Source: a virus (Duplodnaviria; Caudoviricetes). From it: a stretch of DNA of 64,000 nucleotides. The notes under the pieces are model-generated. The model did no database searches and was not told the origin of the DNA. It saw only the letters and a list, made by a program, of their open reading frames with translations. Numbering within the stretch: the stretch's first letter is position 1; every line of letters begins with the position of its first letter. Positions 21,768 through 49,264 of the stretch are shown one piece after another. The position numbers and the translations under genes are program-made. The DNA lies in IMG/VR virus record IMGVR_UViG_3300021256_000074, positions 1 through 64,000 of that record. One strand, 5' to 3'.

Positions 21768-21780
21768 GTTTGTTATGTTT

Positions 21781-21829
21781 TGGGGTGAGGTGGGGATTCG
21801 AACCCCATAGCCCATGCAGCTCCTCACCC
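21781..21829 (-). ncRNA. Mini tRNA-like element (acceptor plus T arm)
   Basis: GGGTGAGG/CCTCACCC stem; TGGGG-TTCGAAT-CCCCA T arm; small AGC/GCT hairpin. Confidence 0.65.
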
Positions 21830-21839
21830 ATTCCCACTT

Positions 21840-22140
21840 TGGTAGGTCTAGGTCAACCGACTTCACGCTGCCTCCTGGAGGCCCGTGTAGTCTGCAATGT
21901 TATTATTGCCGTTTAAATTTATATCAGAGCGCTTGTCTTACGACTGTCTTACTTTCTGCTGCCGTCTAAACCGGTCAAGCCCAAATATGCCGGTTTTAGT
22001 TAATATTTTATGTGGATACCCCGACACCGGCAAACGTCCGCTCCACTCAGTACCCAAGTTCTCTGTACCGAAGTGGACCTGGAGGGAGTCGAACCCTCGT
22101 CCGAACAGCTTATCCTCAGACACGCTAAGATTCTTGTTGT
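21840..22140 (-). ncRNA. ssrA: Circularly permuted (two-piece) tmRNA gene, tag peptide GNNNIADYTGLQEAA
   Basis: 3' module GGACGAGGGTTCGACTCCCTCCAGGTCCA (~22102-22074) lies upstream of 5' module GGGCTTGACCGGTTTAGACGGC (from 21982); acceptor GGGCTTG/CAGGTCC has G3:U70; tag ORF 21910-21863 ends AA-TGA; outer boundaries approximate. Confidence 0.88.
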
Positions 22141-22284
22141 GAACATCTTGATGATCAGTCAAAACGTTCGATTTAAGGCTATTTAAAGCCGTTCTAAGAC
22201 GTTTTCTCTACTCTCATGGATAGCTGGTCCACTTAAGCTTTAAAGACGCTTAAAAACAAACTTTTCAATACTCTTAAATAAGGT

Positions 22285-22660
22285 TGATACAGTGGTCTAT
22301 TACTGGCTCGAGGCTCTCAATAGGTTGTATCTGCATTCTTGAAATCACTATGCATCGGGTTTAAATCACTCTTAGTTTCATAATTACCGATGGGCTCGAG
22401 GCTCTCCATAGTTCGTGATTTTGATCAAATGACTTCATATTATTACCCGTGAAGTCGGGTTCAATCATCCCATAGTACTGGCTCAAGGCTCTGCCTATGT
22501 GCAGTTAATTCTGCTTTTTAGAAGTTGCGAGTGTCGATACCTGTCGACTCATCGTGATTATCCGTTTATAATACCGATAATCTACATAGTCGCCCCCCAT
22601 AACGTAGTCTGCTACTTCTGTTGTTTATAGAGTATTGGCTCAAGGCTCTGACTCTATAGA
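22285..22660 (-). ncRNA. Non-coding locus with four hairpins displaying AGAGCCT(T/C)GAGCC
   Basis: Motif at 22304-22317, 22392-22405, 22479-22492, 22636-22649, each in the loop of a stem of different sequence. Confidence 0.6.
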
Positions 22661-36385: not shown

Positions 36386-36436
36386 GGGGCGACTGCTTTC
36401 GAGAGCAGTACAGAGTTCGCGACTCTGCGCCCCACA
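36386..36436 (+). ncRNA. Mini tRNA-like element
   Basis: GGGGCG/CGCCCC-ACA; ACTGCT/AGCAGT hairpin; CAGAG-TTCGCGA-CTCTG T-like arm. Confidence 0.6.
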
Positions 36437-36460
36437 TGTTTAAAACTAAAGTTTCCATTT

Positions 36461-36511
36461 TAGGTGGTTATGGTACAGCTTAGCTGAGGGGTTCGATTCC
36501 CCTACCTACCA
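36461..36511 (+). ncRNA. Mini tRNA-like element ending CCA, abutting the suppressor tRNA
   Basis: TAGGT/ACCTA-CCA; AGGGG-TTCGATT-CCCCT T arm. Confidence 0.62.
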
Positions 36512-36512
36512 C

Positions 36513-36587
36513 TGGTCTATGGTGTAGCGGTAGCACGGGAGGCTCTAACCCTCCAGGTCCGGGTTCGACTCGATGGTAGGCCGACCA
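36513..36587 (+). tRNA. Amber suppressor tRNA (anticodon CTA), Gln-type body
   Basis: TGGTCTA/TAGGCCG-A-CCA acceptor; GGAGG-CTCTAAC-CCTCC with CTA at 36545-36547; irregular T stem. Confidence 0.9.
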
Positions 36588-49153: not shown

Positions 49154-49264
49154 GCGCGGTTAGCTTAGTGGTAAAGCGGGAGACAGGCTCATACATGAGT
49201 TTCGGAAGCACCTTAGTGATAGAAAGTATCATAGCCGAGGGTTCGATTCCCTCACCGCGCGCAA
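49154..49264 (+). tRNA. tRNA-like RNA with an expanded (~55-nt) anticodon domain
   Basis: GCGCGGT/ACCGCGC acceptor; D arm AGCTTAGTGGTAAAGC; GAGGG-TTCGATT-CCCTC T arm; two internal hairpins. Confidence 0.7.

Follow-up and report, generated by a model that had tools for sequence, protein, structure and literature searches.

The stretch of DNA analysed here, called the window below, comprises 64,000 nucleotides (nt) of a virus (IMG/VR record IMGVR_UViG_3300021256_000074, positions 1 to 64,000), and the element in question is a predicted transfer-messenger RNA (tmRNA, ssrA) gene on its minus strand. The whole record has 101,100 bp, carries terminal repeats and has a G+C content of 38%. It is the genome of a Suoliviridae-like crAss-like phage of the gut. 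Among deposited genomes it is closest to cr272_1 and cr273_1 (Crassvirales, Suoliviridae, Oafivirinae), with ~72% nucleotide identity to cr272_1 over the DNA polymerase gene. ARAGORN placed a 'tmRNA*', its label for a permuted gene, at 21772-22166 (-) and read the tag GNNNIADYTGLQEAA; the 3' limit of this call is set 91 nt beyond the stop codon, as always in that program's permuted calls. The Rfam model RF04321 (tmRNA_permuted) matched 22128-21863 (-) at 62.1 bits (gathering score 47, E 1.3e-9) over the full model (positions 1-213), and it was above threshold in nine of ten relatives' genomes. Two independent programs agree on a permuted tmRNA. A first-pass annotation, made by a model from the sequence and its open reading frames only, had described a circularly permuted two-piece tmRNA gene on this strand at 21840-22140 and had named ARAGORN and permuted tmRNA models as checks; both return the gene. 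The gene is larger than that segment: it begins with a 5' hairpin at 22166, and behind it lies a tRNA-like minihelix (21828-21783) that the first-pass annotation does not have.

Along the minus strand, an acceptor piece is followed by an intervening segment, a coding piece and the tRNA-like minihelix (Table 1). The acceptor piece contains the 5' hairpin, the 3' strands of helix P2, the T arm and the acceptor 3' strand with the discriminator base A73. C74 follows A73, and CCA is not encoded. The coding piece contains the acceptor 5' strand, a D-loop analogue, the 5' strands of P2, an A/U linker, the GGC-initiated tag in the resume context TTAAAC-GGC, and a hairpin at the stop codon. In P2a, GCTGTTCG pairs with CGGCAGC, in P2b TGTCT pairs with AGACA and, beyond P2b, AGCG pairs with CGCT in P2c. 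The pairings proposed in the first-pass annotation, TCTTA/TAAGA among them, are real. The comparative data prefer a register that differs in part, with P2c beyond P2b and a local hairpin at the junction. The GUC-GUAA-GAC hairpin is specific to the window copy, its inserted bases being absent from the homologues L153 and L126. RNAalifold predicted no helix in the linker, and the helix-5-like hairpin was present in both the minimum free energy (MFE) and the centroid fold of the precursor.

Table 1. Parts of the predicted tmRNA gene and of the element behind it, in transcription order (positions of the window)
Feature	Positions	Strand	Details	Basis
5' hairpin of acceptor piece	22144-22166	-	8-bp stem CGUUUUGA/UCAAGAUG, loop CUGAUCA	read from sequence
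P2 3' strands, acceptor piece	22102-22126	-	P2c AGCG 22126-22123; P2b UGUCU 22122-22118; P2a GCUGUUCG 22109-22102	
T arm of tRNA-like domain	22082-22098	-	GAGGG/UUCGACU/CCCUC	matches RF04321 consensus
Acceptor 3' strand and discriminator	22074-22081	-	CAGGUCC 22081-22075, A73 at 22074	pairs with 21982-21976
Intervening segment	21983-22073	-	91 nt, predicted to be excised; sequence unconserved	
Acceptor 5' strand	21976-21982	-	GGGCUUG; RNase P cleavage predicted at G1	
D-loop analogue and P2 5' strands	21928-21975	-	ACCGGUUUAGA; P2a 21964-21958, P2b 21949-21945, P2c 21931-21928	
Hairpin at P2b/P2c junction	21944-21935	-	GUC-GUAA-GAC, 10 nt, GNRA	MFE fold
A/U-rich single-stranded linker, P2c to resume codon	21911-21927	-	CUGAUAUAAAUUUAAAC, 17 nt	sequence and alignment
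Tag frame	21863-21910	-	resume GGC 21910-21908, 15 codons = GNNNIADYTGLQEAA, stop UGA 21865-21863	ARAGORN
Helix-5-like hairpin over last tag codons and stop	21860-21891	-	inner stem GCCUC/GAGGC	folds
tRNA-like minihelix	21783-21828	-	46 nt; acceptor GGUGAGG/CCUCACC, small hairpin, T arm UGGGG/UUCGAAU/CCCCA, discriminator C	

Homologues were gathered by BLAST and by two pattern scans of IMG/VR, followed by ARAGORN and a family hidden Markov model (HMM); a pattern for the T arm alone was too generic and returned mainly alpha-type genes. The resulting alignment comprised 15 homologues, each from a different contig, and several of these contigs are complete genomes with terminal repeats. The module order was identical in 15/15 of them. 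Unguided RNAalifold recovered the split acceptor stem, the T arm, P2a and the T arm of the downstream element. The base pair G3:U70, an identity element for alanine, was present in every homologue and A73 was kept as well, so that both acceptor features pointed out in the first-pass annotation are conserved. Pair 4:69 was C-G in eight homologues and G-C in seven, and pair 5:68 was found as four pair types. P2a, with 8 bp, showed double-sided changes at every pair, and P2b and P2c covaried, while the T-arm stem was invariant in all 15. With P2b and P2c added, pairing cells made up 95.1% (80.8 ± 1.1% in shuffles), double-sided changes occurred at 18 of 33 pairs (10.5 ± 1.7 in shuffles), and the covariation score was 0.39, compared with at most 0.09 in any slid register. 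None of 500 shuffles attained any of the observed pairing values.

Other parts of the two pieces were conserved to different degrees. The GG and GAC of the D-loop analogue and the GGAC motif were invariant; we take these GAC/GGAC motifs flanking P2a to be the SmpB-contact region of tmRNAs. The loop CUGAUCA of the 5' hairpin recurred on different complementary stems in L137, L148 and L164, and in a subfamily resembling L003 the loop was UAAGAACUG on a covarying stem. The intervening segment ranged from 17 to 138 nt; in L003 and L078 it holds an additional T-arm-like motif, GAGGUUCGACUCCUC.

The tag frame, its D-Y-T/S motif and its Ala-rich end were kept in 15/15 homologues, and many of the differences between tags were synonymous (GAC/GAT, TAC/TAT, ACG/ACT/ACC, CTC/CTA). 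Per-sequence folds gave the stop-codon hairpin with five different stem sequences across the subgroups; this hairpin is the classical helix 5. The window copy shares the homologous D-Y-T/S tag, the module order and the downstream tRNA-like element with the family, and the family HMM includes it. We consider it likely, judging from these patterns of conservation, that the gene encodes a functional two-piece tmRNA and that the family is common to Suoliviridae-type crAss-like phages. One subfamily (L148, L074, L164 and L135) lacks the GGC resume codon and has (CAG) AAC AAU AAC ..., giving NNNIVDYTHVA. ARAGORN misses its members, RF04321 scores them at 57-64 bits, and their resume codon is uncertain.

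The tRNA-like element was present in all 15 aligned members, 26-49 nt past the stop codon. In a MAFFT alignment of the 3' part RNAalifold gave its T arm only, with the 5' acceptor strands out of register, and the element was therefore examined sequence by sequence. Its 7-bp acceptor was perfect in 12/15 members and had 6 of 7 bp in the remainder, with ten different stem sequences, and its T arm covaried. The interior ranged from tRNA-Lys(UUU)-like (L084) through 6-nt and 4-nt 'anticodon' loops to a bare minihelix of 45-49 nt. Since the nearest relatives L153, L126 and cr272_1 retain an element of 68-80 nt, the reduction to a minihelix in the window phage is recent. The tRNA-Lys(UUU) behind the L084 tmRNA looks intact; L084 lies in a 253-kb genome with terminal repeats (G007), and the tmRNA family is therefore not confined to ~100-kb phages.

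An acceptor/T-arm minihelix is the minimal substrate of RNase P and RNase Z. For this reason, and because a sister type of permuted tmRNA has a terminator at the same place, the element is probably an RNase P end-marker that would set the 3' terminus of the coding piece. Within Rfam, 21784-21828 most resembled mascRNA (RF01684), below threshold at 24.9 bits versus 42.5. mascRNA, at the 3' end of MALAT1, is likewise tRNA-like with a reduced anticodon arm and lies immediately behind a functional RNA, which gains its mature 3' end when RNase P cuts at the 5' end of mascRNA. mascRNA is a eukaryotic RNA without homology to the phage element; the likeness is a mechanistic analogy only, and cleavage of the phage element is a prediction.

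Alternatively, the element could be a retained protective 3' cap, a separate small RNA or a decaying tRNA-Lys gene, and no processing signal. The near-normal tRNA-Lys(UUU) of L084, the annotation of the element as tRNA-Lys in cr55_1 and cr1_1, and the similar minihelices that precede the suppressor tRNA of the window phage would all fit this explanation, which we nevertheless regard as somewhat unlikely. Neutral decay would hardly keep the acceptor stem and T arm through ten stem sequences while the anticodon region shrinks or vanishes; the terminator at the same place in the related permuted group points to 3'-end formation, and the shape retained is the one established as the minimal substrate of both nucleases. 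The minihelices mentioned are two acceptor/T-arm structures of the same shape as the post-tmRNA element, at 36386-36512 (+) directly before the CUA suppressor tRNA. One has the stem GGGGCG...CGCCCC and the T-like arm CAGAG/UUCGCGA/CUCUG, the other the T arm GGGG/UUCGAUU/CCCC.

The reading of the gene as an RNase P-processed, functional tmRNA has to be weighed against its small size. Only 17 nt separate P2c from the resume codon and ~34 nt the stop codon from the tRNA-like element, and 5' of P2 there is one hairpin. By sequence, alignment, RNAalifold and MFE fold, no pseudoknot fits there, neither pseudoknot 1 (PK1) upstream of the resume codon nor PK2-PK4 downstream of the tag. The first-pass annotation had already called the gene minimal, with little room for PK2-PK4, and the same now holds for PK1. 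PK1 matters in E. coli. Reduced tmRNAs without pseudoknots are known, and membership is not excluded thereby. Several points count against a working tmRNA. All pseudoknots are missing, PK1 included, so that the activity of so small a tmRNA is assumed. The tag ends in QEAA, unlike the canonical LAA degron, and the z-score of the single-sequence fold is modest (-2.1). No promoter was recognised by eye upstream of 22166, either of the Bacteroidota type (TTTG ... TAnnTTTG) or with motifs of the extracytoplasmic function (ECF) type. Finally, the tmRNA is known here as a sequence, and the RNase P role of the downstream element is read from its shape and conservation.

A match of the standard tmRNA model at 22071-22350 had raised the possibility of pseudoknots upstream of the gene. 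This candidate was rejected: the region holds repeated hairpins unrelated to the tmRNA model. Four hairpins with the conserved loop AGAGCCUYGAGCC lie upstream of the tmRNA on the same strand, at 22290-22650 (-), and a small hairpin, GGCU-UUAAAU-AGCC, at ~22190-22177 covaries in L153, L126 and L001. These upstream hairpins may be part of the tmRNA transcript or of its control.

We compared the gene with the models of the known permuted lineages. The alphaproteobacterial model (alpha_tmRNA, RF01849, cut-off 50) found no match at the locus, its best score in the genome being 4.2 bits elsewhere; a Caulobacter control passed. The models beta_tmRNA (RF01850; 30 bits versus 84, model positions 81-162) and cyano_tmRNA (RF01851; 22.5 bits versus 70, model positions 56-120) matched the shared tRNA-like core only. 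The standard one-piece model RF00023 reached 28 bits versus 47, 5'-truncated and on the acceptor-piece side only. Searched with an HMM built on the 5' part of the coding piece (G1 to stop), ~100 other phage and bacterial tmRNAs gave nothing significant outside the family; the best outside match, of alpha type, scored 18 bits (E 0.002), and Bacteroidota-type genes scored 9-11 bits. Since the coding piece has no significant outside relative, sequence does not settle the origin. When a one-piece 'GN...' phage tmRNA (L097) and a 'GKTINF' tmRNA (L035) were compared with deposited phages by BLAST, only T arms matched, save for a lead to the phage MA9V-3, described below.

An ancestor of the type found in the host phylum is nevertheless plausible because of the GGC resume codon and its context, one shared acceptor stem, the unencoded CCA and the standard gene form in Bacteroidota, whose genomes have standard-form tmRNA in 99.7%. 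We give such a separate, Bacteroidota-type origin an even chance or slightly better. It would agree with the first-pass annotation, which had proposed an independent permutation in a phage: the failure of the alpha, beta and cyano models and the Gly GGC context speak for that proposal, and no outside sequence link of significance was found to confirm it.

Horizontal inheritance of the permuted order from the classical alpha, beta or cyano lineages, or from their phages, appears rather unlikely. Phages do move such genes: permuted tmRNAs of alpha type are found on many IMG/VR phage contigs (PMC9004378). The gene fits the general permuted model RF04321, and the best outside match of the coding-piece HMM is of alpha type, though at the low score given. 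But the specific models find nothing at the locus (alpha) or the tRNA-like core only (beta, cyano). The resume codon, Gly GGC in a UAAAC/UAACU context, is of the kind seen in Bacteroidota-type one-piece genes. The alpha-type permuted tags compared (AND...ALAA) all begin with Ala instead, though Gly also opens some other permuted phage tags (GEQVELAMAA, GKTINF...). In addition, one subfamily has an acceptor stem identical to that of a Bacteroidota-type gene, and the rarity of any other than the standard form in that phylum also tells against transfer from the classical lineages.

If all parts of our interpretation hold, the family would be a fourth, independently permuted lineage that arose in phages from a Bacteroidota-type one-piece gene. 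It would have the smallest architecture of any tag-encoding tmRNA, free of pseudoknots, the 3' end of its coding piece would be made by RNase P at a degenerated tRNA-Lys minihelix in the manner of mascRNA, and the same device would be reused before the suppressor tRNA. We put forward this combination tentatively, as somewhat less probable than its failing in one part or another.

The following mechanism would be consistent with the features of the gene. The leftward, standard-code arm of the genome would be transcribed into one precursor, which host RNase P would cut at G1 (21982) and, a second time, at the 5' end of the tRNA-like element (~21829/21828), which would leave the coding piece with its 3' end. 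The acceptor piece would be trimmed to A73 by host 3' processing and completed by the host's CCA-adding enzyme. The two RNAs, held together by the acceptor stem and P2, would then be charged as a paired complex by host alanyl-tRNA synthetase (AlaRS) and brought to stalled ribosomes by host SmpB and EF-Tu; nascent chains would gain (A)GNNNIADYTGLQEAA and be degraded. We found no SmpB in the whole 101-kb genome or in five relatives, as the first-pass annotation had noted for the window, and no CCA-adding enzyme in the genome of the window phage. Host factors are needed, since the phage encodes neither. The likely benefit would be that ribosomes are kept free during infection, when decay of host mRNA yields non-stop messages. 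As a second possible benefit, the phage would impose its own tag.

The first-pass annotation had placed the gene in a stop-codon-recoding phage, and this proved right. In the rightward late genes TAG is read as sense, one 5,587-codon frame containing 73 in-frame TAGs, while the leftward genes contain zero or one. ARAGORN found a CUA suppressor tRNA at 36513-36587. The tmRNA gene lies in the leftward, standard-code arm amid tRNA genes. We asked how recoding and the tmRNA are distributed in nine relatives' genomes, using the gain in open reading frame (ORF) length when each stop codon is read as sense, and ARAGORN on each genome. A BLAST search of the suppressor tRNA against deposited phages gave mainly unrelated tRNAs and missed cr272_1, and ORF-gain statistics were used instead. 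The window phage, G001, G002, G006 and cr272_1 are TAG-recoded and carry a CUA tRNA. G003, the genome of L148, looks recoded by ORF gain (1.56), and ARAGORN found no CUA suppressor in this complete 100-kb genome. In G004, G005, G008 and cr10_1 the TAG gain was 6-12%, less than that from TGA; these genomes carry the tmRNA but gave no suppressor tRNA.

These distributions bear on a further suggestion of the first-pass annotation, that the tmRNA is an accessory of the code switch and rescues ribosomes stalled at UAG while the suppressor is scarce or release factor 1 (RF1) is inhibited. It would suit the window phage, with its TAG-recoded late genes and encoded CUA suppressor tRNA, and five to six of the ten tmRNA-bearing genomes are recoded. 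The four without recoding or suppressor argue in the other direction. Moreover, tmRNA requires an empty or truncated A site and so cannot act directly at an internal UAG of an intact mRNA. We conclude that the tmRNA is not tied to recoding, because the family is present in non-recoded genomes without suppressor tRNA, and consider a special role in the code switch very unlikely; as far as gene content can tell, the tmRNA would serve a general function in infection that is not specific to TAG recoding. Replacement of a cleaved host tmRNA had also been raised in the first-pass annotation as a possible role.

Two structured-RNA observations concern the genomic surroundings. The Rfam tRNA model scored 46.8 bits over 108 nt at 49154-49261 (+), which is too long for a normal tRNA and was not called by ARAGORN. 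The tmRNA region of cr10_1 (L003) is rich in structured RNAs, with a Hatchet ribozyme (101 bits) and a RAGATH-9 RNA (97 bits) at 650-776 and 1629-1807, 1-2 kb upstream of the tmRNA.

A decoy that inhibits host trans-translation by titrating SmpB or AlaRS would, like the predicted two-piece tmRNA, come without a phage SmpB, and the lack of any pseudoknot would be compatible with it. The tmRNA-like RNA of mycobacteriophage DS6A, which lacks a coding sequence, has been reported as such a decoy or inhibitor (mentioned in PMC11915505). For the crAss-like gene we hold this to be, if anything, slightly less probable still than a role in the code switch. Over deep divergence, and with synonymous changes, the family keeps the tag frame with its D-Y-T/S motif and Ala-rich C-terminus, as well as the resume context and the stop-codon hairpin, none of which a pure decoy would need. 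An assembly artefact or a dead relic has practically no chance: the same module order occurs in at least 15 independent contigs from different samples, several of them complete with terminal repeats, and compensatory changes link the two gene halves. Because independent contigs conserve, with such changes, the acceptor stem bridging the halves, P2, the tag frame and its hairpin, chance, relic and artefact are all excluded.

A tmRNA is normally a cellular housekeeping RNA; here an entire branch of the gut's most abundant phage order has one of its own. If the predicted two-piece tmRNA is active, trans-translation can run on a tmRNA without pseudoknots, and the phage gives the RNA half of the system while borrowing SmpB, AlaRS, RNase P and the CCA-adding enzyme from its Bacteroidota host. 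A degenerate tRNA could then serve as the 3'-end marker of a neighbouring RNA in a phage, and the two-piece gene form would have a further origin. There are also consequences for annotation. ARAGORN misses the subfamily without the GGC resume codon, and databases assign every permuted gene to an alpha, beta or cyano class. For these reasons, such phage DNA may account for the 48 hits in Bacteroidota genomes that the tmRNA database lists as 'permuted'.

Homologues of the gene are already in public databases. At least nine deposited crAss-like genomes carry a feature 'transfer-messenger RNA, SsrA' at the homologous site in GenBank/RefSeq. Among them are cr272_1 (NC_055903, 193-562), cr273_1 (NC_055904) and cr10_1 (MT774382/NC_055875); for cr50_1, cr60_1, cr114_1, cr125_1, cr124_1 and cr7_1 the assignment is a BLAST match under the annotated tmRNA feature only. 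These features are automatic labels. The tmRNAs of cr272_1, cr273_1 and cr10_1 belong to the same family, with permuted order, homologous tags (GNINVVDYTGLQEAA, GNNFVTDYTQLAVA) and the same downstream tRNA-like element, and in cr273_1 and cr10_1 there is synteny with tRNA genes and a gene for an ECF-type sigma factor. The window copy differs from these relatives in its new sequence, the inserted 10-nt GNRA hairpin in P2 and the element cut to 46 nt. Our literature searches (crAss-like with tmRNA; two-piece tmRNA with bacteriophage) returned no paper describing this family or its features, and phages are absent from the rows of the supplementary table to the tmRNA database paper. The first-pass annotation had said that database records of permuted phage tmRNAs would reduce novelty, and such records exist, both as the annotated crAss-like genomes and as published permuted phage tmRNAs (PMC9004378). 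The presence of the gene is not new in itself; what the papers searched do not describe is its pseudoknot-free architecture with a probable tRNA-like end-marker and its plausible separate origin.

The one-piece tmRNAs of Bacteroidota (tags GENNYALAA and GETNYALAA; L037, L117) share with the crAss-like family the Gly GGC resume codon in a ...UAACU/UAUCU GGC context, the same T arm and the absence of CCA after A73-C74, and one phage subfamily has exactly their acceptor, GGGGCUG/CAGCUCC. They differ in their standard order, their length of ~390 nt and their pseudoknots, and beyond the tRNA-like core there is no significant similarity. Two-piece tmRNAs were reportedly described from Alphaproteobacteria (Caulobacter), a betaproteobacterial lineage and marine cyanobacteria by Keiler in 2000 and by Sharkady and Williams in 2004. 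The crAss-like tmRNA has in common with these classical forms the permutation itself, with the acceptor piece first, a loop excised by tRNA-processing enzymes and pieces joined by the acceptor stem and P2, as well as the match to RF04321. Unlike them, it fails RF01849, RF01850 and RF01851, resumes on Gly, has neither PK1 nor a pseudoknot remnant and carries a tRNA-like element in place of the terminator; it is also phage-borne, and its host phylum has one-piece genes.

Among phages, Buchholz et al. (2022) reported 53 two-piece genes in 133 unique phage tmRNAs, most of them from marine phages and matching the host in alpha or cyano type (PMC9004378), and the 2025 tmRNA database holds 79 phage sequences, RF04321 being a merger of the alpha, beta and cyano models (PMC11915505). 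The tmRNAs of these marine phages (OM43 phage Melnitz, pelagiphages and cyanophages; PMC9004378) are likewise two-piece genes called by ARAGORN, with no phage SmpB reported. They are of the alpha or cyano type of the host lineage, some with a glutamine riboswitch (PMC9004378), whereas the crAss-like family is a separate lineage from gut and rumen. A further phage tmRNA is that of Chryseobacterium phage MA9V-3 (PV245944, 22766-23124; L234 2442-2800), which is permuted and small, has the tag GNVIDINKYVAKLEVAA and scores 64.7 bits with RF04321. It groups with uncultured 'GKTINF...' tmRNAs (L035, L020, L041, L052), also permuted and small, and MA9V-3, L035 and L020 resume on Gly. The tmRNAs of this group differ from the crAss-like family in their tags and in an intrinsic terminator at the 3' end, and they are its sister type. 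MA9V-3 infects a Bacteroidota host and is cultured, so it is a possible experimental stand-in for the crAss-like phages.

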